NCBI GenBank assembly: GCA_951406725.2
Contig: OX597841.1
Span: forward strand, 10,726,001-10,790,000
Source: Octopus vulgaris
Taxonomy: Eukaryota
Direction of reading: 5' to 3'
Length of the DNA: 64,000 bases
Shown here: piece after piece, positions 6,090-53,445 of the stretch
Numbering within the stretch: the stretch's first letter is position 1
Layout: the number at the start of each line of letters is the position of its first letter
The notes under the pieces: model-generated
Told to the model about the DNA's origin: nothing
The model's database searches: none
The model's input: the letters and a program-made list of their open reading frames with translations, nothing else
Program-made: the position numbers and the translations under genes

Positions 6090-6702
<613 letters not shown>

Positions 6703-9700
6703 TAAAATAAATATAAGAGAGTGGTCACTATATGGCTCACTCTAGCACCAGTTAATCCAAAAGGTTTCAACCACAAAAATACATGTTTCCCATGAAAGTC
6801 AGTACGATTGTTAGCTCACACGGACAGGGCAAATAAAAAATAACAAAAATACAGATTATTTTGGGACAATTGTTTCGCTATTAATGAATTAAATGTAATA
6901 TTACTTACAAAAAAATCCACTTGTAGCTCCTCAGCCAAAACTATCTGGATGAAATCCACTCAATCACACGCCAGACTTTACCATAACGATAAATACACGT
7001 GTGGTTCAATTGATTACATCCGACGTTATAATTCAAATGCCCCAACTAACAGCGCGCCAAACTTTCACGGAAAACAAAGACTGCATTTAGAAATAAATGT
7101 AGCATAATTATAATTAATTAATAAGGGTGAGAGAATTAGATACTAATTTAATAGTATATCTATTCAACACCAAGTGGCCTAGTGCTCCGAGAAACCTGGA
7201 TTATTATAATATTTTATAATATATTATAATATTTTTACAAAATAAATATAAGAGAGTGGTCACTATATGGCTCACTCTAGCACCAGTTAATCCAAAAGGT
7301 TTCAACCACAAAAATACATGTTTCCCATGAAAGTCAGTACGATTGTTAGCTCAAACGGACAGGGCAAATAAAAAATAACAAAAATACAGATTATTTTGGG
7401 ACAATTGTTTCGCTATTAATGAATTAAATGTAATTTTACTTACAAAAAAATCCACTTGTAGCTCGTCAGCCAAAACTATCTGGATGAAATCCACTCAATC
7501 ACACGCCAGATTTTACCATAACGATAAATACGCGTGTGGTTCAATTGATTACATCCGACGTTATAATTCAAATGCCCCAACTAACAGCGCGCCAAACTTA
7601 CACGGAAAACAAAGACTGCATTTAGAAATAAATGTAGCATAATTATAATTAATTAATAAGGGTGAGAGAATTAGATACTAATTTAATAGTATATCTATTC
7701 AACACCAAGTGGCCTAGTGCTCCGAGAAACCTGGATTATTATAATATTTTATAATATATTATAATATTTTTACAAAATAAATATAAGAGAGTGGTCACTA
7801 TATGGCTCACTCTAGCACCAGTTAATCCAAAAGGTTTCAACCACAAAAATACATGTTTCCCATGAAAGTCAGTACGATTGTTAGCTCACACGGACAGGGC
7901 AAATAAAAAATAACAAAAATACAGATTATTTTGGGACAATTGTTTCGCTATTAATGAATTAAATGTAATTTTACTTACAAAAAGATCCACTTGTAGCTCG
8001 TCAGCCAAAACTATCTGGATGAAATCCACTCAATCACACGCCAGATTTTACCATAACGATAAATACGCGTGTGGTTCAATTGATTACATCCGACGTTATA
8101 ATTCAAATGCCCCAACTAACAGCGCGCCAAACTTTCACGGAAAACAAAGACTGCATTTAGAAATAAATGTAGCATAATTATAATTAATTAATAAGGGTGA
8201 GAGAATTAGATACTAATTTAATAGTATATCTATTCAACACCAAGTGGCCTAGTGCTCCGAGAAACCTGGATTATTATAATATTTTATAATATATTATAAT
8301 ATTTTTACAAAATAAATATAAGAGAGTGGTCACTATATGGCTCACTCTAGCACCAGTTAATCCAAAAGGTTTCAACCACAAAAATACATGTTTCCCATGA
8401 AAGTCAGTACGATTGTTAGCTCACACGGACAGGGCAAATAAAAAATAACAAAAATACAGATTATTTTGGGACAATTGTTTCGCTATTAATGAATTAAATG
8501 TAATATTACTTACAAAAAAATCCACTTGTAGCTCCTCAGCCAAAACTATCTGGATGAAATCCACTCAATCACACGCCAGACTTTACCATAACGATAAATA
8601 CACGTGTGGTTCAATTGATTACATCCGACGTTATAATTCAAATGCCCCAACTAACAGCGCGCTAAACTTACACGGAAAACAAAGACTGCATTTAGAAATA
8701 AATGTAGCATAATTATAATTAATTAATAAGGGTGAGAGAATTAGATACTAATTTAATAGTATATCTATTCAACACCAAGTGGCCTAGTGCTCCGAGAAAC
8801 CTGGATTATTATAATATTTTATAATATATTATAATATTTTTACAAAATAAATATAAGAGAGTGGTCACTATATGGCTCACTCTAGCACCAGTTAATCCAA
8901 AAGGTTTCAACCACAAAAATACATGTTTCCCATGAAAGTCAGTACGATTGTTAGCTCACACGGACAGGGCAAATAAAAAATAACAAAAATACAGATTATT
9001 TTGGGACAATTGTTTCGCTATTAATGAATTAAATGTAATATTACTTACAAAAAAATCCACTTGTAGCTCCTCAGCCAAAACTATCTGGATGAAATCCACT
9101 CAATCACACGCCAGACTTTACCATAACGATAAATACACGTGTGGTTCAATTGATTACATCCGACGTTATAATTCAAATGCCCCAACTAACAGCGCGCCAA
9201 ACTTTCACGGAAAACAAAGACTGCATTTAGAAATAAATGTAGCATAATTATAATTAATTAATAAGGGTGAGAGAATTAGATACTAATTTAATAGTATATC
9301 TATTCAACACCAAGTGGCCTAGTGCTCCGAGAAACCTGGATTATTATAATATTTTATAATATATTATAATATTTTTACAAAATAAATATAAGAGAGTGGT
9401 CACTATATGGCTCACTCTAGCACCAGTTAATCCAAAAGGTTTCAACCACAAAAATACATGTTTCCCATGAAAGTCAGTACGATTGTTAGCTCAAACGGAC
9501 AGGGCAAATAAAAAATAACAAAAATACAGATTATTTTGGGACAATTGTTTCGCTATTAATGAATTAAATGTAATTTTACTTACAAAAAAATCCACTTGTA
9601 GCTCGTCAGCCAAAACTATCTGGATGAAATCCACTCAATCACACGCCAGATTTTACCATAACGATAAATACGCGTGTGGTTCAATTGATTACATCCGACG

Positions 9701-12700
9701 TTATAATTCAAATGCCCCAACTAACAGCGCGCCAAACTTACACGGAAAACAAAGACTGCATTTAGAAATAAATGTAGCATAATTATAATTAATTAATAAG
9801 GGTGAGAGAATTAGATACTAATTTAATAGTATATCTATTCAACACCAAGTGGCCTAGTGCTCCGAGAAACCTGGATTATTATAATATTTTATAATATATT
9901 ATAATATTTTTACAAAATAAATATAAGAGAGTGGTCACTATATGGCTCACTCTAGCACCAGTTAATCCAAAAGGTTTCAACCACAAAAATACATGTTTCC
10001 CATGAAAGTCAGTACGATTGTTAGCTCACACGGACAGGGCAAATAAAAAATAACAAAAATACAGATTATTTTGGGACAATTGTTTCGCTATTAATGAATT
10101 AAATGTAATTTTACTTACAAAAAGATCCACTTGTAGCTCGTCAGCCAAAACTATCTGGATGAAATCCACTCAATCACACGCCAGATTTTACCATAACGAT
10201 AAATACGCGTGTGGTTCAATTGATTACATCCGACGTTATAATTCAAATGCCCCAACTAACAGCGCGCCAAACTTTCACGGAAAACAAAGACTGCATTTAG
10301 AAATAAATGTAGCATAATTATAATTAATTAATAAGGGTGAGAGAATTAGATACTAATTTAATAGTATATCTATTCAACACCAAGTGGCCTAGTGCTCCGA
10401 GAAACCTGGATTATTATAATATTTTATAATATATTATAATATTTTTACAAAATAAATATAAGAGAGTGGTCACTATATGGCTCACTCTAGCACCAGTTAA
10501 TCCAAAAGGTTTCAACCACAAAAATACATGTTTCCCATGAAAGTCAGTACGATTGTTAGCTCACACGGACAGGGCAAATAAAAAATAACAAAAATACAGA
10601 TTATTTTGGGACAATTGTTTCGCTATTAATGAATTAAATGTAATATTACTTACAAAAAAATCCACTTGTAGCTCCTCAGCCAAAACTATCTGGATGAAAT
10701 CCACTCAATCACACGCCAGACTTTACCATAACGATAAATACACGTGTGGTTCAATTGATTACATCCGACGTTATAATTCAAATGCCCCTACTAACAGCGC
10801 GCTAAACTTACACGGAAAACAAAGACTGCATTTAGAAATAAATGTAGCATAATTATAATTAATTAATAAGGGTGAGAGAATTAGATACTAATTTAATAGT
10901 ATATCTATTCAACACCAAGTGGCCTAGTGCTCCGAGAAACCTGGATTATTATAATATTTTATAATATATTATAATATTTTTACAAAATAAATATAAGAGA
11001 GTGGTCACTATATGGCTCACTCTAGCACCAGTTAATCCAAAAGGTTTCAACCACAAAAATACATGTTTCCCATGAAAGTCAGTACGATTGTTAGCTCACA
11101 CGGACAGGGCAAATAAAAAATAACAAAAATACAGATTATTTTGGGACAATTGTTTCGCTATTAATGAATTAAATGTAATATTACTTACAAAAAAATCCAC
11201 TTGTAGCTCCTCAGCCAAAACTATCTGGATGAAATCCACTCAATCACACGCCAGATTTTACCATAACGATAAATACGCGTGTGGTTCAATTGATTACATC
11301 CGACGTTATAATTCAAATGCCCCTACTAACAGCGCGCCAAACTTACACGGAAAACAAAGACTGCATTTAGAAATAAATGTAGCATAATTATAATTAATTA
11401 ATAAGGGTGAGAGAGAATTAGATACTAATTTAATAGTATATCTATTCAACACCAAGTGGCCTAGTGCTCCGAGAAACCTGGATTATTATATTTTATAATA
11501 TATTATAATATTTTTACAAAATAAATATAAGAGAGTGGTCACTATATGGCTCACTCTAGCACCAGTTAATCCAAAAGGTTTCAACCACAAAAATACATGT
11601 TTCCCATGAAAGTCAGTACGATTGTTAGCTCACACGGACAGGGCAAATAAAAAATAACAAAAATACAGATTATTTTGGGACAATTGTTTCGCTATTAATG
11701 AATTAAATGTAATTTTACTTACAAAAAGATCCACTTGTAGCTCGTCAGCCAAAACTATCTGGATGAAATCCACTCAATCACACGCTAGATTTTACCATAA
11801 CGATAAATACGCGTGAGGTTCAATTGATTACATCCGACGTTATAATTCAAATGCCCCAACTAACAGCGCGCCAAACTTTCACGGAAAACAAAGACTGCAT
11901 TTAGAAATAAATGTAGCATAATTATAATTAATTAATAAGGGTGAGAGAATTAGATACTAATTTAATAGTATATCTATTCAACACCAAGTGGCCTAGTGCT
12001 CCGAGAAACCTGGATTATTATAATATTTTATAATATATTATAATATTTTTACAAAATAAATATAAGAGAGTGGTCACTATATGGCTCACTCTAGCACCAG
12101 TTAATCCAAAAGGTTTCAACCACAAAAATACATGTTTCCCATGAAAGTCAGTACGATTGTTAGCTCACACGGACAGGGCAAATAAAAAATAACAAAAATA
12201 CAGATTATTTTGGGACAATTGTTTCGCTATTAATGAATTAAATGTAATATTACTTACAAAAAAATCCACTTGTAGCTCCTCAGCCAAAACTATCTGGATG
12301 AAATCCACTCAATCACACGCCAGACTTTACCATAACGATAAATACACGTGTGGTTCAATTGATTACATCCGACGTTATAATTCAAATGCCCCTACTAACA
12401 GCGCGCCAAACTTACACGGAAAACAAATACTGCATTTAGAAATAAATGTAGCATAATTATAATTAATTAATAAGGGTGAGAGAATTAGATACTAATTTAA
12501 TAGTATATCTATTCAACACCAAGTGGCCTAGTGCTCCGAGAAACCTGGATTATTATAATATTTTATTATATATTATAATATTTTTACAAAATAAATATAA
12601 GAGAGTGGTCACTATATGGCTCACTCTAGCACCAGTTAATCCAAAAGGTTTCAACCAGAAAAATACATGTTTCCCATGAAAGTCAGTACGATTGTTAGCT

Positions 12701-12832
12701 CACACGGACAGGGCAAATAAAAAATAACAAAAATACAGATTATTTTGGGACAATTGTTTCGCTATTAATGAATTAAATGTAATATTACTTACAAAAAAAT
12801 CCACTTGTAGCTCCTCAGCCAAAACTATCTGG
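6703..12832 (-). repeat. 535-bp tandem array (~11.5 units), each unit carrying a hammerhead ribozyme; retrozyme / Penelope pLTR-like
   Basis: The anchor gtggtcactatatggctcac recurs at 6721, 7256, 7791, 8326, 8861, 9396, 9931, 10466, 11001, 11535, 12070 and 12605 (period 535, one of 534). Units differ at only a handful of positions. Confidence 0.97.
6852..6947 (-). ncRNA. Type I hammerhead ribozyme (representative copy; further copies start at 7387, 7922, 8457, 8992, 9527, 10062, 10597, 11132, 11666, 12201, 12736)
   Basis: Minus strand: CAGAUAGUUUUGG-CUGA(G/C)GA-GCUA-[long loop]-UAGC-GAAA-CAAUUG-UC-CCAAAAUAAUCUG. The core is complete, stem II has 4 bp, stem I has ~12 bp, and helix III is minimal with palindromic AAUU. 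Predicted GUC cleavage falls between 6865 and 6864. Confidence 0.9.
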
Positions 12833-13018
12833 GAAACCTTTTGGATTAACTGGTGCTAGAGTGAGCCATATAGTGACCACTCTCTTATATTTATTTTGTA
12901 AAAATATTATAATATATTATAAAATATTATAATAATCCAGGTTTCTCGGAGCACTAGGCCACTTGGTGTTGAATAGATATACTATTAAATTAGTATCTAA
13001 TTCTCTCACCCTTATTAA

Positions 13019-13025
<7 letters not shown>
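12833..13025 (+). repeat. Inverted partial copy of the 535-bp unit capping the array
   Basis: gaaaccttttggattaactggtgctagag...cacccttattaattaatta is the reverse complement of unit sequence equivalent to ~7110-7302. It is followed by (TA)n. Confidence 0.95.
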
Positions 13026-13077
<52 letters not shown>

Positions 13078-13081
13078 ATAC

Positions 13082-13113
<32 letters not shown>

Positions 13114-13260
13114 GTATATATAGATAGGTAGATAGATATATATATATATGTGTGGATGTGTGTGTGTATGTTGAACCCCGTGCACTTGTGCATGTACTCA
13201 CACAAACACATGCAGATAGACGCCCAAACACATACACGTATATATTTATATATATATATA

Positions 13261-13700
13261 AATTAGTAAATAAATGGCACAACTAAGTACCGATATTTAC
13301 TGGAAATAGCGAACGTAAAAATACGACGCTAATGTGTAGCTTCACCGCGTATGTATTAGCAAAAATGCGTGTGTGCAACAAACTAGAGCAGAAAAACGTC
13401 TTACCTCCAGGGAGAACATCTGAAAGATGAAACACCCGGAATAGGATGACGTGGGACCTGCAGGTTTCAGGTTTTACAAGATATGTCTCTCACCCATATT
13501 TTGTTTTACCTTCATCAGCCAAGCATATACCAAGACGAAATCTACGATGTTACCACATTAATACTATCACACTCGACTGAAATGCGGAACGCTAACAGCA
13601 CGAGAAATGGTGAAGAAGTTTCAAAATATCAGTAATGCAATACAAAGTATCGCCTTCCAGCAAAAAGTAGCCCGTGAGGGAAAAATACGCAAATTAGTAA

Positions 13701-16962: not shown

Positions 16963-17556
16963 TCATCATCATTTAGCGTCCGTTTTCCATGCTAGCATGG
17001 GTTGGACGGTTCAACTGGGGTCTGTGAAGCCAGGGCTGCACCAGGCTCCAATCTGATCTGGCAGTGTTTCTACAGCTGGATGCCCTTCCTAACGCCAAGC
17101 ACTCCGCGAGTGTAGTGGGTGCTTTTTACGTGCCACCCGCACAGGTGCCAGACGGAGCTGGCAAACGGCCACAAACGGATGGTGCTTTTATGTGCCACCG
17201 GCACAGGGGTCAGGCGAGGCTGGCAACGGACACGAACGGATGGTGCTTTTATGTGCCACCGGCACAGGGGTCAGGCGAGGCTGGCAACGGACACGAACAG
17301 ATGGTGCTTTTATGTGCCACCAGCACGGAGGCCAGACGGTGCAGCACCGCCAACGGCCACGATCGGATGGTTCGCTTTACTGATGTTGATCGACCTCAAT
17401 TTTGGTTCTGCTTTCTGATATCTGATTTGATTTGGTTTGGTTTGATTTTGATTTTGATTCTGACTGTTCTCACTGGTCTTGCCGGGTCTTCTCACGCACA
17501 GCATACTTCCATAGGTCTCGGTCTCTAGTCATTTCCTTGGTGAGACCTAAAGTTCA
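16961..17556 (-). mobile_element. RTE 3'-end-derived repeat with internal ~51-bp tandem units
   Basis: Reverse complement of the 52650-53445 type sequence, including the RTE ORF tail (gcacagcatacttccataggtctcggtctctagtcatttcc). Confidence 0.75.
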
Positions 17557-27377: not shown

Positions 27378-29854
27378 TCCTCGGACGTGCTGTCACTTCG
27401 GCTCCGAAGGTAATCGCTTATTTTGACTATTTATAGCCCATATTTTGTGTACATTTTTGTAAATAAGGTGTGTAAGGCACCCAACTTTCGTGACCTTCCC
27501 TCTTGCCTCTTGTCTCTTCCAATGTTTGTGTGTGAAACACACTTTTCGTAAACGTCAATTATGCTTAAATTAGGTTGTGTGAATGCGCGTGGCTTGGCGT
27601 CGGCTTGGAAGCAAGGTTACCTTCTAAACGACATCATGTCACTGAACGTGGATATAGTAGCTATCAGTGAAACCAGACTCAGCAAGTCGCGGGCCCTCGC
27701 GTCCATGTTTGGCGATCAATTTGACATTTATTTTTCACCCTGTCTGCCGAACATGGGTGGTGGAGGTACCGCGGTGCTTTTTCGAAAGAGTCTAAATGTA
27801 AAAGTAAGAACAATATTCCTAGACCCGGAGGGTAGGCTGGTTGTCTTGGACGTGGATGGCAGAAATGGGTGTGCATTCCGTCTGATAGCAGTTTATGCAC
27901 CGTCCTTAACGGGTCGGGCGGATTTCTTCAGACGTCTAGAGGTTTTCCTGGGTACGTCTAGACCTTTACTGTTAGTAGGGGATTGGAACGCTACCTTGGA
28001 CACGCATCTAGATTATGTGGGAATCGATAGGAATAGAAGGGGGTGTAAGAGCCTCAAAGACCTACTCAGACGTTTCCATTTGTCTGACAGGTTCCGACTC
28101 GACAATCCGAACGTACCAACGTGGACTTGGACAAACCGCGTCGGATCGTCGAGATCTTATCTAGATAGAATTCTATGCAGGACAGCGGATAGGGATAGCG
28201 TAGGATGTCCACAATTTAAAATAGTCAGCTACACAGATCACAAATTTGTGACGTGTACGCTCGACTTAGATAAGACACATAGACAGGGTCCCGGTTACTG
28301 GAAACTGAACACGTCGCTCTTAGCGTGACAGGTTTACAGGAATTAGCGAGTTAATTAAGAGGGCGCTGACGGGAGCCGTCGTTAACAATCGCTGGTGGTT
28401 CGCCCTGAAAATGGCAATAAAATCGGAATCAATTAGGTTTAGCAAGGAATTAGCGATAGATCGAAACAGAGTAGAGGGAGACCTGGTTAAGAAACTAGAA
28501 GAGGCACTTACCACTGGCAGCGCAACCAACGTGCCGGCTGCGAGGATGGCCCTCGACCAACACCTCAACGCCAAGCACGAAGGTTGCGTCGTCAGAGCTA
28601 CAATGCGTACCTTAAGGAAGGAAGGGATCGAAGCTGCGCGAGAGGCCCGGGTAGCGGAGGCGCAGCGTGGCAACAGAGCCACCATTCGGTCTCTAATAGA
28701 TCAACAGGGATGCAGTTTACTCGAACCCGAAAGGATGTGTGAGGCCTTTCAACAGCACTTTGCTCGATTGTTTGGTGCGAGTGGTGGGTCGGAACGCGGA
28801 ATACATTTCAGTGCCTACCTGACCGACCTGCCGCGGCTCTCGGCAAGAGAAGCGAAGTGTTGTGAAAGTCCCATCACAGCCGCTGACGTGCGGGATGCGA
28901 TGGCGGGCTGCGCGAGGGATAAGTCGCTTGGATTAGATGGTTTACCCTACGAGCTGTATAGTCAAATGCCAGACTTGTTTGACGACCTCTTGGCATCAGT
29001 GTACTGCAACTGGCAACAAAACGGGAGAATTCCCGGTTTCGTGAGCCGAGGTGCAGTGACGTTGCTGAAGAAAGACCCAAACAAGGGGAATTTTATAGAT
29101 AATTTCAGGCCCATCACTCTGTTCAACGCAGATTTGAAAATTTTGGCCAAAGTAATAGCCGAGAGGTTGGCGCTTGTCATTGGTAAACTGGTCGACAGGG
29201 CGCAAACATGCGCCGTGCCGGGCAGAACCATACATGACAACCTCCACCTGATGCGCTACATTGTGGACAGGGTAGTTAAGGATCCTGGCATGGGTGGGGC
29301 GCTGATAAATTTGGATCAGTCTAATGCATTCGATAGGGTCGACCATCGGTACTTGGCGGCCGTCCTCAGGGCGGCTGGCTTCGGTCCCGTCTTCCGCGGT
29401 TGGATCGCTGCCTTGTATAGCGGCATCCGATCGGTGATTCGGGTGAACGGTCACCTGTCGAAACCGTTTGACATCACGTTCGGTCCGTCAGGGGTGTCCC
29501 CTGTAGGCGCTTCTGTATGTATTGACTCTCGAGCCGCTACTGCGGAAGCTGGCGACACTGAGGGGAATCCCACGAGAACTGGGTTGCGGGACGAGCGTGT
29601 CGGCATATGCGGACGATGTCACCGTCATAGTGTCGAGCGACAAACACATCCAGATGATAGGCGAGACACTAAGAAAATACGAAACGGTGAGGGGAGCGAA
29701 GATTAACCCGGAAAAGTCAGTGGGTTTGCTACTCGGCACCTGGAGAAGCAAACCCATGCCGTCCGACTGCAGCTCAGTAGTGGGACGCTGGACGGACGGA
29801 CCGGTTAAATTGCTCGGGGTCTGGTTCAGTCCGGACCTCCAAATGGATAAGAAC
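27378..29854 (+). mobile_element. Tx1/L1-clade LINE, ORF2 5' part (APE endonuclease + reverse transcriptase), disrupted and 3'-truncated
   Basis: 27561..28328 encodes an APE endonuclease (NARGL, SET, YAP, GDWN, YLDRI, TDH, GPGYWKLN). 28411..29480 and 29522..29854 encode RT (GLDGLPYE, FRPITLFNADLKI, DQSNAFDRV, YADD, KLLGVW). GC-rich and relatively young, with frameshifts near 28325 and 29478. Confidence 0.93.
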
Positions 29855-29859
29855 GTCAA

Positions 29860-30600
29860 GTGTATGTGACTAACGAATGGAGATTGTTTAAAGACTCGAG
29901 TAAGGTTAGCCTCGAAGCTGTGTTGTTACATAATGGTAATGAAAAACCTTCCATTCCTGTGGGTCATGCTATCGGTATGGAAGAAACTTATGAATCGATG
30001 GAACTCATTCTGAAAGGAGTTAATTACTCAGTTCATAAGTGAAATATTTCTGGTGATTTAAAGATGATTTACCTCATCCTAGGACTGCAGCTGGAATACA
30101 TCAAAAATATGCACTTCTTGTGTGTTTGGAATAGTCGTGATGACAGCAACCATTACACTGTAAAAGACTGCTCTAAAAGAGATCTGCGCATAATTGGTCG
30201 CTACAATGTGCAGCATGTGCCGCTGGTAAACCCAGAAAAAAATCTTCCATCCACCCCTTCACATCAAACTCGCCTTCATGAAAAACTTTGTAAAAGCAAC
30301 GACACACGATGTAACTTAGCGGTTCGGCAAAAGACACCGATAGAATAAGTACTGGTCGATTTGCTCGACTAAAGGTGGTGCTCTAGCATGGCCGCCGTAA
30401 AATGACTGAAAAAAGAGATTAAAAGAGCAAATATCGACAAAAGTGTATTTTCTTTAAACTACCTTATTAAGGGAGATAACTAAAAAATAACATCTTAGAG
30501 TTACTTCCCTTGCGTCATATAAAACCGACGTGAGAGTTTCAAATTGAAATGGGTTCGTTTTTCGCTTGCGAAGGGGACACGAGCATTGGCGCACCAACAG
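29860..30600 (+). mobile_element. Unclassified DNA-transposon-derived remnant
   Basis: EWRLFKDSSKVSLEAVLLHNGN..SIPVGH....ETYESMELIL...NY..H...GDLK...LGLQ....K..FLC.WNSR is a widespread transposase-derived protein family. I could not assign the superfamily. A SINE fragment interrupts it at ~30305-30425. Confidence 0.6.
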
Positions 30601-40921: not shown

Positions 40922-43223
40922 CTGAAATAAATATTTCCAAGATTATACTTTATAGTAAAATTTCTTTAATGAACATCGATATTTTATAATTGTGAAATAT
41001 TCCTATAACCAATATTCAAGATTAACCGTCCCAAATGCCCCCACTCTGTAGGTAACGAAGGGCTTCTCCCTAAGAGTGGAAAGCAGATTGTATGAGACTT
41101 GTGTACGGACAGATGTACAACACAATAATGAAAGATAGGCTGTGAAGATAGAAGACATGCAAAGGGTTGGAGACAAATGAAGCCAGCATGCTCCACTGGA
41201 TGTACAACATCAGTGTTCAGGTAAGTCGCAGTGGAAATGTCTTCAGAGAAAATCTGGGTATAAGAGTCATCCGATGTAGAGTTCAAAAGAGAGATCTTTC
41301 ATAGTATGGTTATGTGATGCATATGGATGAGGTGATCAGCATAAAGAGATGCGGATCTCTAAATGTGGAGAGAAGCTGAGGAAGAGGAAGACTGAGAAAG
41401 ACATGGGACAAAGTGGTGAGAAATGATGTTCAGATGCTGAGCTTCACACGGGAAGATAACTAAAACAACTGAGACAATCAGCAATTTTCTGTGCTTGAAA
41501 AGACCCAACTGGCTAAGTAACATCGAGGCCATCAAGGCATGTCCTTTATGTGCATACCCCCACCCCGCACACAATCTGTCCCCTAAAAATCATCTCCACG
41601 AGCCAAATTCCATACACCCTTCCCCAACATGATCCCTAACAAGATATAAAATGTAAGGTGAGGGTACACGATGTTCCTATGACAAAATATGTTTACATTT
41701 CAGACATACAAATGTAAGAGAGTTAATGAATTATAGCTTATTAATTATCATGATAATTGGGTATATATGTGATACAATGGCACTGTGCTTGACGGTGCAA
41801 TACTAGATATCAATATAGATTGTATATAATCTGAGTAAAGAACATATAACCTTCATTACTATGAATATGATTGTGTCTCAGCACAGCTAATATTATGGTA
41901 GTTCCATGAGCAAACGAAGAAAGATATAACCAAGTCCACTGCCAAATACTAATGACTAATTCATTTCCTGGTCAAATAACAATGACTAACTTCCATTAAA
42001 TAATTTGAACGCAAGAATCAAGACCAAAGGGTGAAACACTCAGAAAACTGTGCCTCTTTTAGCATTAATATCATCTAAAATCTAACAAGAGTGAGAAAAA
42101 GAATGACTATATGGATGGTAAATGTTGTTCAAACAATGTAATAAGTGTATATTATATATAGTTACAAACAAGGATTTGTGAGATCAAGTCACACAGGGAA
42201 CTCATATTTAATTCCTATCTTTATAATTTATGTCAACACCAATATTTTGTTTAAATGCAAACAGATGTTCACCGTTCAATACTAAATTTGATATTTAATC
42301 AACGTTAATGATCATTATACTTATAATCTTAGAGATTTGATTTTTAATGTCTTTAATTTATAACAAAGTTATTCTGACCTGAGACATTCAGGGTACGTAC
42401 CTAAACAACATATCATGACAGACATCTGGCTACATAACAACAACAACAATAACCTATGAGAAAACTTAGGAAAGACCTTAGTAGTAAAAGAAACAAAATC
42501 TTTCTCGTTAACTCACCTGTTTACAAATAAACAACAAAATGTTTTAGTTCTCTGTCCTAAAAGACATCATTAACTCTATTATGTCTTCTTATTTAACCAT
42601 TTTACCAACCACGTTAACCTTGATTTTATGAAATTTCAGTGGAATATTTAATAGAATCCTTTTTACAGCTAATGCGGAAACTAGGGATTGACGAGCGATT
42701 ATAAGAGTTGAAGAGGCCCTGTAGTAAGGTGAGGATCGGCAATGAGTATAGTGAAGAATTCCGGATAGAAGTAGGAGTTCACTAGGGATCATTCCTAAAC
42801 ACCTCGTTTTCATCATAGTCCACCAGGCAATAACAGAAATGACAAATCAAAAGCAATTCAAGATCGAAATCAAAATGGAAATTGTAGTTGTGACCGATGC
42901 CAGTGCCGCCTGACTGGCACCTGTTCCTGTGTCACGTTATAAGTACCATAGAAGCATAGGTCCTTGTCACTGCCGCCTGACTAGTTCCCTGTGCCGGTGG
43001 CACGTAAAAAGCACCATCCGAACGTGGTCGATGCCAGCCCCCACCCCGACTGGCTCCTGTGTCGGTGGCACGTAAAAGGCACCCACCACACTCTCGGAGT
43101 GGTTGGCGTTAGGAATGGCATACATATGTGGAAACCTTGCCAGATCACATTGGAGCCTGGCGCAGTCTACTGCCTTGCCAGTGAAATCGTCCGACCCATG
43201 CCACCATAAGAAACGGATGTTAA

Positions 43224-43254
<31 letters not shown>

Positions 43255-43504
43255 GTTCTGTGACCAAATGACAAAATTAACTCTATTGTGTCTTCTAATT
43301 TGAACATTATTACCAACAGCATTAACCTCAATGGGTATTTCATAAACTCTCAGTAAATCGATATCTTTAATACAATTATTATACAGATAATTGTTCAATT
43401 GGAAAATAGGAATGGAAGCTGTTTTCAGTTATTCTTTCAAGCACAATATACTCGGGGAAGAAAACCTTACAGAAATCAATTGGGAACTATTATTTTATAC
43501 TCAC

Positions 43505-43832: not shown

Positions 43833-45596
43833 AAACACATTAAATATTCTAACAATGTTGCAATTATCTCATTTAATTAACACTTGATAACAGTTTTCTC
43901 TTAGCTTTGTCTTTCTTTTCTTATAACTGTGCCAAATCTATGGCATGGCACAGTCCTCTCATCTCTAGAATTCACTAATCAACATTCCTCTCTAATTAAG
44001 TAAAACTGAGCCCATAAAGACATGTCCTTTATGTGCATACCCTCCACCCCGCACACAATCTGTCCCCTAAAAATCATCTCCACAAGCCAAATTCCATACA
44101 CCCTTCCCCAACATGATCCCTAACAAGATATAAAATGTAAGGTGAGGGTACACGATGTTCCTATGACAAAATAAGTTTACATTTCATACATACAAATGTA
44201 AGAGAGTTAATGAATTATAGCTTATTAATTATCATGATAATTGGGTATATATGTGATACAATGGCACTGTGCTTGACGGTGCAATACTAGATATCAATAT
44301 AGATTGTATATAATCTGAGTAAAGAACATATAACCTTCATTACTATGAATATGATTGTGTCTCAGCACAGCTAATATTATGGTAGTTCCATGAGCAAACG
44401 AAGAAAGATATAACCAAGTCCACTGCCAAATACTAATGATTAATTCATTTCCTGGTCAAATAACAATGACTATCTTTCATTAAATAATTTGAACGCAACG
44501 ATGTCAGTGTGCACACAAGGCAGAGTGAAGAGGCCTGAGAGAAGTGTTAGACATAAGAAGCATCAGATGTGGTGTACAAGAGAGACAACTGCACTGGTAT
44601 GGTCATGTGTATGGATGAGGAGAATTGTGGGAAGAAGTGTTACACCCTAACAGTGGAAGGAACCCGTGGAAAGGGGTGACCCAGGAAGACAGGGGATGAC
44701 GTGGTGAAACGACCTTCGAATGTTGGGCCTCACAGAGGTAATGGCAAGAGACAGAGACAGAGACCTCTGTAAATATGATGTGATTAAGAGGACCCGGCAA
44801 GTGAAGTGAGATCACAGCTGTAGCCTATACCAGTGTTGCATAACCAGCCCTTTTTAAAAGTACCCTTGAATCACAGAGTGATAAGTTGCGCTTGAGAAGA
44901 ATTTCTGAGTCAAGTAAAACCAAAAATCAGAAATCACAAATCAAAATCAAATCAAGATCGAAATCAAAATGGAAATTGTAATTATGGCCGATGCCAGTGC
45001 CGCTTGCTGGCACCTGTGCCGGTGGCACCATAATAAGTACCATTCAAACATTGTTTGTTGCCAGTGCCGCCCGACTGGTTCCCTGTGCCGGTGGCACGTA
45101 AAAAGCACCATCCGAACGTGGTCAATGCCAGCCCCCACCCCGACTGGCTCCTGTGTCAGTGGCACGTAAAAGGCACCCACCACACTCTCGGAGTGGTTGG
45201 CGTTAGGAATGGCATACATATGTGGAAACCTTGCCAGATCACATTGCAGCCTGGCGCAGCCTACTGCCTTGCCAGTGAAATCGTCCGACCCATGCCTCCA
45301 TAAGAAACGGATGTTTAATGATGATGATGATGATGATGATGATGAGTTCTGTGACCAAATGACAAAATTAACTCTATTGTGTCTTCTAATTTGAACATTA
45401 TTACCAACAGCATTAACCTCAATGGGTATTTCATAAACTCTCAGTAAATCGATATCTTTAATACAATTATTATACAGATAATCGTTCAATTGGAAAATAG
45501 GAATGGAAGCTGTTTTCAGTTATTCTTTCAAGCACAATATACTCGGGGGAAGAAAACCTTACAGAAATCAATTGGGAACTATTATTTTATACTCAC

Positions 45597-52341: not shown

Positions 52342-53445
52342 TACATGGCAGTGAAACATGGGCCGTGACTGCTGAGGATATGCGTAAGCTCGCTAGAAAT
52401 GAAGCCGGTATGCTCCGATGGATGTGTAATGCCGGTACTCACACTCGGCAGAGTGTAAGTACCTTGAGAGAAAAGCTGGACCTAAGAAGCATCAGTTGTG
52501 GTGTGCAAGAGAGACGTTTGCGCTGGTATGGTCATGTGGCAAGAATGGATGAAGATAGTTGTGTGAAAAAGTGCCACACCCTAGCGGTTGAGGGAACCTG
52601 TGGAAGAGGCAGACCCAGGAAAACCTGGGACGAGGTGGTGAAGCACGACCTTCGAACTTTAGGTCTCACTGAGGAAATGACTAGAGACCGAGACCTCTGG
52701 AAGTGTGCTGTGCGCGAGAAGACCCGGTAGGACAAGTGAGTCCATAACCCGTGGCCTTCTACATGGGATGGAGCCGGCCTACGTATGCATACCTTCCCTT
52801 CTTGGGACACAAAACTCTACTTGTGAAGACGTGTTGAGGCAAGTGAGGATCAGAATCGAAATCGATCAATGGAAATTGCGGATGTGCTACCAGTGCCGGT
52901 GGCATGTCAAAACTCTGCTTGTGAAGACCCGTTGAGGCAAGTGAGGATCAGAATCGAAATCGATCAATGGAAATTGCGGATGTGCTACCAGTGCCGGTGG
53001 CATGTCAAAACTCTGCTTGTGAAGACCCGTTGAGGCAAGTGAGGATCAGAATCGAAATCGATCAATGGAAATCGATCAATGGAAATTGCAGATGTGTTAC
53101 CAGTGCCGGTGGCATGTAAGAGAACTTTCCGTTTCGCGACCGTTGCCAGCACCGCCCCGTTTCGTGTCCGTTGCCAGCCTCGCCTGGCCCTCGTGCCGGT
53201 GGCACATAAAAAGCACCATCCGTTCGTGGCCGTTTGCCAGCTCTGTCTGGCACCAGTGCGGGTGGCACGTAAAAAGCACCCACTACACTCACGGAGTGGT
53301 TGGCGTTAGGAAGGGCATCCAGCCGTAGAAACACTGCCAGATTTGACTGGGCCTGATGAAGCCTTCTGGCTTCACAGACCCCAGTAGAACCGTCCAACCC
53401 ATGCTAGCATGGAAAACGGACGCTAAACGATGATGATGATGATGA
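52338..53445 (+). mobile_element. 5'-truncated RTE-clade LINE with long 3' UTR containing 98-bp tandem repeats
   Basis: Intact ORF end MLHGSETWAV...MLRWMC...RRLRWYGHVARM...GRGRPRKTW...DRDLW. 98-bp units start at 52811, 52909 and 53007. (GAT)n tail. Confidence 0.85.

Follow-up and report, generated by a model that had tools for sequence, protein, structure and literature searches.

The 64,000-nt stretch of the Octopus vulgaris genome analyzed here (the window; contig OX597841.1 of assembly GCA_951406725.2, positions 10,726,001 to 10,790,000 of the forward strand) contains a 535-bp non-coding unit repeated head to tail at positions 6704..12832 on the minus strand, in an array of 11 full units and a partial twelfth (11.4 units). 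On both sides, the array is embedded in (TA)n microsatellites identified with Tandem Repeats Finder, one at 6401..6703, on the element's 3' side, and the other at 13028..13149; both junctions were mapped, and a target-site duplication is unreadable because both flanks consist of (TA)n. The forward array ends 1 nt past stem I of its twelfth hammerhead ribozyme and is followed by a 195-bp inverted piece of the unit (12833..13027, plus strand; unit positions 394-535 plus 1-53) that lacks the hammerhead. At the opposite end, 161 nt (6704..6864, minus strand) separate the predicted cleavage site of the first hammerhead from the element's 3' end, which lies in an AT-rich patch where reverse transcription would have started. 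The unit has a GC content below 50% and a highly self-paired monomer, and pairs of units differ at 0-11 sites. No open reading frames of at least 100 aa start inside the units, no tRNA genes were found in 6300-13300, and there is no autonomous partner among the six open reading frames scanned.

Each of the 12 units, including the partial one, encodes a type I hammerhead with all the characteristic elements, namely CUGANGA, GAAA, UH, stems I-III and an open stem I. In copy 1 (6852..6947, minus strand), stem I consists of 6947-6935 and 6864-6852, with 12 of the 13 pairs formed, and the core is made up of CUGANGA at 6934-6928, GAA at 6876-6874 and C17 at 6865, with cleavage predicted at 6865|6864. 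Stem II is fully paired (4/4 bp) and closes a 43-nt loop II that is predicted to fold as a hairpin, whereas stem III is palindromic (ACAAUUGU, 6873-6866). The other 11 copies span 7387..12831 on the same strand, with C3 at 7469, 8004, 8539, 9074, 9609, 10144, 10679, 11214, 11748, 12283 and 12818, and share the core and stems of copy 1. In the predicted fold, 15 of 17 positions have pairing probabilities of 0.89-1.0. Modeling of stem III gives +2.4 kcal/mol for the monomer hairpin compared to -6.4 kcal/mol for the dimer duplex, and the active monomer fold is predicted to lie 2.7 (G7) or 5.6 (C7) kcal/mol above the minimum. The predicted fold of the cleavage-to-cleavage monomer has a z-score of -6.9 (none of 100 shuffled sequences was as low); the plus strand also folds well in the model (z-score -5.2), so that part of the fold of the unit reflects plain inverted repeats.

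Although the core consensus CUGANGA...GAAA...UH of the Rfam hammerhead models is present in the array copies, none of these models matched the window at the gathering score or the segment 6700-7800 at E values up to 10, a failure for which the length of loop II is probably responsible; two Rfam matches with E values of 4-5 were rejected as chance. A scan of metagenomes with the core pattern, used as a control, yielded 24 loci, none with more than three contiguous stem I pairs and none related to the array (best BLAST match, 25 nt). A GU...AG stretch within loop II was considered as an intron and discarded on visual inspection, given that it spans only 31 nt and its removal would take away stem II.

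A preliminary description of this DNA held that variation between the units avoids the catalytic core and affects only the N7 position and loop II. As a description, this holds exactly. Extraction of all 12 hammerheads showed that the 96-nt ribozyme differs at three sites only, with the core and stems I-III identical in every copy: N7 (6930, minus strand) is G in units 1, 4, 5, 8, 9, 11 and 12 and C in units 2, 3, 6, 7 and 10, and the two proposed loop II sites correspond to unit-1 positions 6900 (A/T), which the predicted fold places in the terminal loop of the hairpin, and 6914 (A/G), in the helix of that hairpin. The 6914 variant, found in units 3, 7 and 10, is predicted to break a U-A pair of the hairpin (+1.8 kcal/mol). 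The states at 6900 and 6930 are perfectly linked in all 12 units.

As evidence of more than chance, however, the avoidance does not stand. Across the whole array, 14 substitutions and two indels make up 16 variable sites in the 535-bp unit, of which three fall in the ribozyme, compared to 2.87 expected. The 52 core and stem positions are free of them (P=0.19), as are the 12 core positions taken by themselves (P=0.69), and, given three variable sites inside the ribozyme, the probability that all of them miss the constrained positions is 0.093. When the mask of core and stem positions was slid around the unit, zero variable sites were encountered at 127 of the 535 offsets; invariant runs of 88 nt and 78 nt occur outside the constrained set, compared to 80 nt over stems I-III. 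These offset counts and run lengths might shift slightly, given that alignment columns 493/505 were used for unit positions 491/503, whereas the hypergeometric counts are unaffected because both sites lie outside the ribozyme. Furthermore, the copies are not independent draws, because units 1-4 recur as units 5-8 with a single base difference (21 of 100000 permutations) and N7 is linked to 6900. The preliminary description itself cautioned that the variable sites are few: a complete absence from the constrained positions would reach P<0.05 only with 29 sites for the core and stems or 117 for the core, compared to 16 in the array and 26 in the union with the family-wide sites. The compensatory changes in stems I and II suggested there as a check were not seen, either in the array or among family variants at 2% or more, and the invariant stem pairs are uninformative on covariation either way.

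To place this variation in the context of the family, we used sequencing runs. Of 24 run rows from 12 studies, 20 contain at least half of the unit's words, and four of the 24 were examined; allele shares derive from two runs, X2 and X4, from two studies, and cover variants at 2% or more. The unit is represented by 1274 contigs in X2 and 773 in X4 (601 and 382, respectively, at 99% or more), and the two runs share the same variant sites. C7 accounts for 38% (X2) and 64% (X4) of the summed depth, and the 6900 variant for 73% and 84%; these shares reflect summed contig depth and are not copy numbers, and the window itself may have come from one or the other run. Both N7 and 6900 are thus polymorphic family-wide and probably older than the present array, whereas 6914 is not among the variants at 2% or more in the runs used. 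Within the ribozyme, family-wide variants at 2% or more occur only at the tolerant sites, and the core and stems are free of variants in the family set (P=0.19) and in the union of the array sites with 10 family-wide sites (0/26, 2.5 expected, P=0.065). Run X23, raw DNA reads of which about 3% were read, covers only an AT-rich patch, and the 11 rows that it contributed to the 26-row variant table were therefore left out; it also shows that the coded organism labels of the runs are no guide to the host species. Run X13, the RNA origin of which is a guess, was likewise set aside; its single closed contig (565 nt, depth 15) would be explained equally well by a circle, by a multimer or by DNA carry-over. 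None of the runs listed as containing the unit is an RNA run. Among the 17 loose contig ends listed of 118, TA repeats adjoin unit position 514, near the element's 3' end, in at least four contigs of X2 and unit position 394, the edge of the inverted piece, in at least two contigs of X4. A contig joint resembling the inversion junction of the window did not map to that junction and was rejected. A diverged relative of the unit is seen as short contig pieces only.

The array is a tandem ribozyme-carrying mobile element of an already known kind. The most likely explanation, in our view, is that the locus is a young, high-copy, non-autonomous Penelope-type retroelement (a non-LTR retrozyme) that was inserted as a ready-made multimer into (TA)n, with the N7 and loop II variants inherited as family polymorphisms. 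The 12 consecutive units with complete type I hammerheads compare with the two or more consecutive units by which non-LTR retrozymes are defined (Li et al. 2026; bioRxiv 2026.07.22.740005), and the tandem/inverted insertion in a microsatellite with the 3' end past a hammerhead is the layout of a non-autonomous Penelope element. The non-LTR retrozymes of animals (Cervera and de la Pena 2020, PMC7229834; Li et al. 2026) similarly consist of tandem non-coding units with one type I hammerhead each, a GC content below 50%, a highly self-paired monomer and a two-pair stem III with a palindromic tetraloop. Their unit lengths are 150-450 bp (PMC7229834) and 51-972 bp (the 2026 preprint), against 535 bp in the array. 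Also unlike them, the array has a long plain helix as stem I and a 43-nt hairpin as loop II, lacks the canonical loop 1/loop 2 arrangement, includes an inverted 5' piece, and is known from DNA sequence rather than circular RNA. With hammerhead-bearing Penelope-like elements (pseudo-LTRs; PMC4209133, PMC8557442, PMC11167929), the array shares the tandem plus inverted 5'-truncated layout, the (TA)n target, a 3' end shortly past the hammerhead and a palindromic helix III that suits cleavage as a dimer. Tandem plus inverted 5' copies, the tail and (TA)n targets are known in such elements (PMC8557442), and AT-rich targets with internal priming have been described (PMC11167929). Unlike them, the array lacks a reverse transcriptase or GIY-YIG open reading frame and comprises 11.4 short units instead of a 3-4 kb element in partial tandem. 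No description of the present family was found in the literature searched (few subscription papers, without supplements).

Under this scenario, a Penelope-type reverse transcriptase/endonuclease acting in trans would nick the TA tract, and the cDNA would begin at the AT-rich site 161 nt past a hammerhead, on a multi-unit RNA template that already carries different family haplotypes in a row; copying would end with the inverted 5' piece. Later unequal exchange would then duplicate a block of four units (6716-8855 and 8856-10995, minus strand; 1 difference in 2140 bp) and shuffle alleles. The units are mosaic, with all four gametes at 7 of 36 site pairs, and hence do not fit one cleaved monomer circle; an uncut multimeric template with later duplication fits better. 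On the other side, gene conversion following insertion could also explain the mosaicism, and an error of assembly could have produced the four-unit duplicate.

The preliminary description also took the pattern to fit selection for cleavage during amplification, and the pattern is compatible with such selection without being a test of it. Specifically, each amplification round would need cleavage (through a monomer, a circle and rolling-circle reverse transcription, a life cycle proposed in PMC7229834), and core and stem mutants would be removed, leaving only N7 and loop II to vary; as the explanation of the array, we regard this as possible but unlikely. It draws on the trend in the union set, the intact ribozyme in 12 of 12 copies, the two intermediate-frequency ribozyme variants at tolerant sites, and the fact that the sole core change affects N7, termed a spacer in PMC4075628. 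In addition, by eye and on the one strand visible, the diverged relative at an X4 loose end retains CUGAGG while about half of the adjoining stem I strand is changed, and one DNA contig has a deletion starting exactly at the predicted cleavage site. However, none of the three sets (array, family, union) reaches significance; one monomer circle would yield identical units, whereas neighbors differ by a mean of 6.0 sites; the polymorphisms at N7 and 6900 are old and family-wide, not changes filtered in the present array; changes private to the array disrupt predicted pairs as often as chance would (6/10 vs 5.9 expected); there is no compensatory pair; and one X4 contig end has a stem I change. 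Ribozyme-dead mutants of the one Penelope-like element tested inserted normally in vitro (PMC11167929), and eight of nine Xenopus retrozyme dimers remained uncleaved in vitro (bioRxiv 2026.07.22.740005). The array leaves selection unproven because the differences are too few; purifying selection on the ribozyme over the family history is plausible even though the array itself does not demonstrate it. Under the retroelement explanation that we favor, a young and nearly invariant family is the main reason why the ribozyme has stayed intact.

Constraint that acts on how the entire 535-nt RNA folds, or A-to-I deamination of a double-stranded RNA intermediate fixed by reverse transcription, with the ribozyme only a part, seems to us improbable; all the tests involved are post hoc on 9-13 sites, and the fold itself is a prediction. 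Family-wide variants break one of 13 predicted pairs (3.2 expected, P=0.053-0.061), compared to 6/10 for array-private changes, a contrast that is confounded with transitions vs transversions; the signal disappears when pair gains are counted as changes (5 vs 4.2 expected, P=0.87; linear, 4 vs 4.1, P=0.62). Type-matched refolding, for which alignment columns 493/505 again stood for unit positions 491/503, gives P=0.008, but this value comes from two stabilizing alleles, one of which stabilizes an inactive fold; the pair counts use position 503. On the RNA strand, eight of nine transitions in the family run A>G or C>U (P about 0.007), with polarity assumed from the majority letter, and addition of the array-private transitions lowers the bias to 9/13 (P=0.053). 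Two of five A>G changes are in UAG (8 of 155 A's, P=0.02), one of them opposite a C mismatch, whereas the 5' neighbor test is not significant (P=0.13-0.18). In a bolder version that we consider a long shot, uncut multimeric RNA would be the main template and arrays would keep the donor order, a double-stranded intermediate would be A-to-I edited or filtered for G-U-compatible changes, RNA-level changes would enter many genomic copies, and G7 and C7 would be long-lived alleles of different activity; the C7 allele would then be damped by inactive pairing of G5-A6-C7 with G16.2-U16.1-C17. Editing fixed in retrozyme copies was not described in the literature searched (again few subscription papers, without supplements). 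Finally, a DNA satellite or minisatellite seeded from a Penelope terminal repeat and spread by unequal crossing-over and conversion, with the hammerhead as a passenger (a route discussed in bioRxiv 2026.07.22.740005), would account for the higher-order repeat, the four-gamete incompatibilities and the neutrality of array-private changes toward the predicted fold, but is very unlikely given that the ends resemble a single retro-insertion, in that the left end shows a short AT match to (TA)n and the inverted piece meets (TA)n at the right end, and that other contigs also have ends joined to TA at corresponding unit positions.

The claim of selection as stated adds little, given that an intact hammerhead is expected in a young retrozyme array. 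The need for cleavage in the mobilization of Penelope-type elements and retrozymes is debated, with the circle model (PMC4209133, PMC7229834) opposed by the insertion of ribozyme-dead RNA (PMC11167929). A young, high-copy family with phased haplotypes and mapped ends offers a test case for this need through genome-wide counts, and the same family is suited to ask whether RNA-level changes enter the genome.

The array consists of head-to-tail copies of an AT-rich 535-bp unit (6704-12832), 11 of them complete and the twelfth ending at unit position 233, and adjoins an inverted 195-bp piece of the same unit (12833-13027); (TA)n flanks the array and the inverted piece on both sides. No long ORF is present in the 535-bp unit. 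Each unit carries, on the minus strand, a type I hammerhead composed of stem I (12 of 13 pairs), the CUGANGA core, a 4-bp stem II, GAAA, a palindromic stem III and C17; the 43-nt loop II is predicted to fold as an extended hairpin. The array hammerhead was undetected by Rfam, and scanning the window with a descriptor recovered these 12 hammerheads only. A chance motif match was rejected: the core pattern has 24 matches in metagenomes, in which contiguous stem I pairs number three at most. Four metagenome loci (L004, L007, L011 and L017) contain nearly the same match (CUGACGAG...CGAAAC), in which stem II has four pairs and stem I is absent, possibly another hammerhead type with no relation to the array element. 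Computed energies disfavor stem III in hairpin form (+2.4 kcal/mol) and favor it in duplex form (-6.4 kcal/mol), which resembles the dimer-type animal hammerheads portrayed in PMC4209133. The left array end meets (TA)n 161 nt beyond the first predicted cleavage site. The forward array terminates at 12832, 1 nt past the stem I 5' strand, which leaves the last unit with a single complete hammerhead and nothing further; no microhomology was found at the inversion junction (12832).

According to the preliminary description, variation in the array spares the ribozyme core and affects only N7, the variable nucleotide of CUGANGA (6930 in unit 1), and loop II, which would fit selection for cleavage. 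Extraction of the 12 hammerheads reproduced the listed G7 and C7 alleles unit by unit, and the description is right in that the 52 core and stem positions include none of the just 16 variable sites of the whole unit, but its significance is not shown: 1.56 sites are expected there (P=0.19), and the absence of variation from the 12 core positions has P=0.69. With zero hits assumed in the test, significance requires 29 sites for the core and stems and 117 for the core alone; when the mask is slid round the unit, 127 of the 535 offsets have zero variable sites. The ribozyme as a whole is not depleted of variants, since it contains three of the 16 sites against 2.87 expected. One of these, 6914, had been assigned to the loop; instead, it lies in a predicted pair that the change breaks. 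The array copies are related in blocks: units 5-8 repeat units 1-4 with one difference (21/100000 permutations), and the N7 allele is linked to the variant at 6900 in 12 of 12 units.

For the family-wide view, contigs of four sequencing runs were aligned to one unit; the figures come from runs X2 and X4 (two studies), with 1274 and 773 matching contigs, respectively, the majority at 95% identity or higher. The variant table had 26 rows, and the 11 contributed by run X23, in which an AT-rich stretch gave an unrelated match, were removed. X2 and X4 share 15 substitutions and one deletion (at least 2% in at least one run), and the ribozyme contains only two of these 16, N7 and 6900. The C7 share is 38% in X2 and 64% in X4, and that of the 6900 variant 73% and 84%; the shares are sums of contig depths and do not give copy numbers, and X2 or X4 may itself be the source of the window. 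This shows that the two variants are old family polymorphisms, probably predating the window array, rather than changes that underwent filtering during its growth. Core and stem avoidance among the family-wide copies agrees in direction with the preliminary description, but at P=0.19 (P=0.065 when array and family sites are pooled, 26 in all), and compensatory stem changes are absent among the array, X2 and X4 variants because the stems are invariant at the sampled depth. Unit 11 (12065-12599) is the sole window unit with the family-majority letter at unit position 364, and at position 367 the letter common to all window units is a minor one in the family; this combination would represent either a retained intermediate haplotype or conversion.

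Some observations lean toward a role for cleavage. An X2 DNA contig (depth 42) has, relative to unit 5, a 66-nt deletion (9005-9070) that removes N7 to C17 and, in this single observation, begins precisely where cleavage is predicted (9004/9005); either termination of cDNA at the cleaved 5' end or a jump over stem I would produce such a deletion. A second X2 contig (depth 14) skips 8913-8990, a gap that ends next to stem I. A diverged relative with approximately 85-90% identity, which may be either a sister family or the terminal repeat of an autonomous partner, covers 9098-9252 (X4 records 15 and 16) and 8847-8978 (X2 records 6 and 7); in one X4 loose end of this relative, a single case judged by eye, CUGAGG persists next to a stem I strand that is heavily altered.

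The monomer has a strong predicted fold (z -6.9), and so does the plus strand (z -5.2). In post hoc tests against the predicted monomer fold, with two sites at which the window letter is at most about 1% in the family treated as array-private, the family-wide substitutions disrupt a single pair out of 13, against an expected 3.2 (P=0.053-0.061), and the array-private ones six of 10 (5.9 expected); the effect vanishes when pair gains are included (P=0.62-0.87). Also post hoc, on the RNA strand all but one of the nine transitions in the family are of the A>G or C>U type (8/9, P=0.007), a bias that drops to 9/13 (P=0.053) when array-private transitions are added, and two of the five A>G family transitions occur in a UAG context (P=0.02); the 5' neighbor test was not significant. 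The strand bias could stem from wobble tolerance or from A-to-I editing fixed by reverse transcription. A-to-I editing prefers UAG. Neighbor preferences of this editing are mentioned, with no more stated, in the pertinent portion of PMC4384741. N7 may not be neutral, since C7 is predicted to stabilize, by 2.9 kcal/mol, a monomer fold that is inactive; a role of N7 as a spacer is supported in PMC4075628.

The host is an animal-type genome, and repeats elsewhere in the window resemble those of octopus. A frameshifted LINE remnant (27552-29869, plus strand) carries endonuclease (PF03372) and RT (PF00078) domains and is not of Penelope type; a zf-RVT piece related to it occurs at 59825-60304 (minus strand). 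A dispersed GC-rich repeat, putatively of octopus type, forms short tandems at 1-208, 17118-17326, 44991-45177 and 52810-53280, with a repeat length of 61-68 bp, or 98 bp in one of these arrays. A short interstitial TTAGGG-like tract (62977-63052) is located near an N gap (~62630-62730), and two near-identical minus-strand stretches ~2 kb apart with matching reading frames (42967-43428 and 44947-45519) are a local duplication.

With regard to the origin of the array, TA-joined loose contig ends fall at unit positions 514 (four contigs) and 394 (two contigs), the latter coinciding with the point at which the inverted piece ends on its outer side. The geometry of the inversion fits twin priming as in L1 elements. 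Penelope-like elements, as characterized in PMC8557442, are arranged in tandem next to an inverted copy truncated at its 5' end, bear tails and target (TA)n, and in vitro results in PMC11167929 include internal priming beyond the hammerhead into AT-rich DNA. Taken together, these features make a non-autonomous Penelope derivative (a non-LTR type of retrozyme), along the lines outlined in PMC7229834 and bioRxiv 2026.07.22.740005, the best reading of the array. Had a single cleaved monomer been copied by the rolling-circle route, the units would be identical, which does not fit the average of 6.0 differing sites between neighboring units and the four gametes in seven of 36 site pairs. Given these differences, the non-autonomous Penelope derivative would have required a multimer left uncut as template, template switching or subsequent exchange at the DNA level. 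The mosaic units make cleavage at every unit less likely as a filter, in accord with the normal insertion of ribozyme-dead RNA of a Penelope-like element in the experiments covered in PMC11167929 and with the lack of cleavage in 8/9 Xenopus dimers in the data quoted from bioRxiv 2026.07.22.740005.

Literature searches found no earlier description of this 535-bp retrozyme family. The locus belongs to an already known class of elements, and, since hammerhead loci and Penelope elements are listed for a squid genome in the corresponding part of PMC6962438, such elements in cephalopods would be unsurprising.
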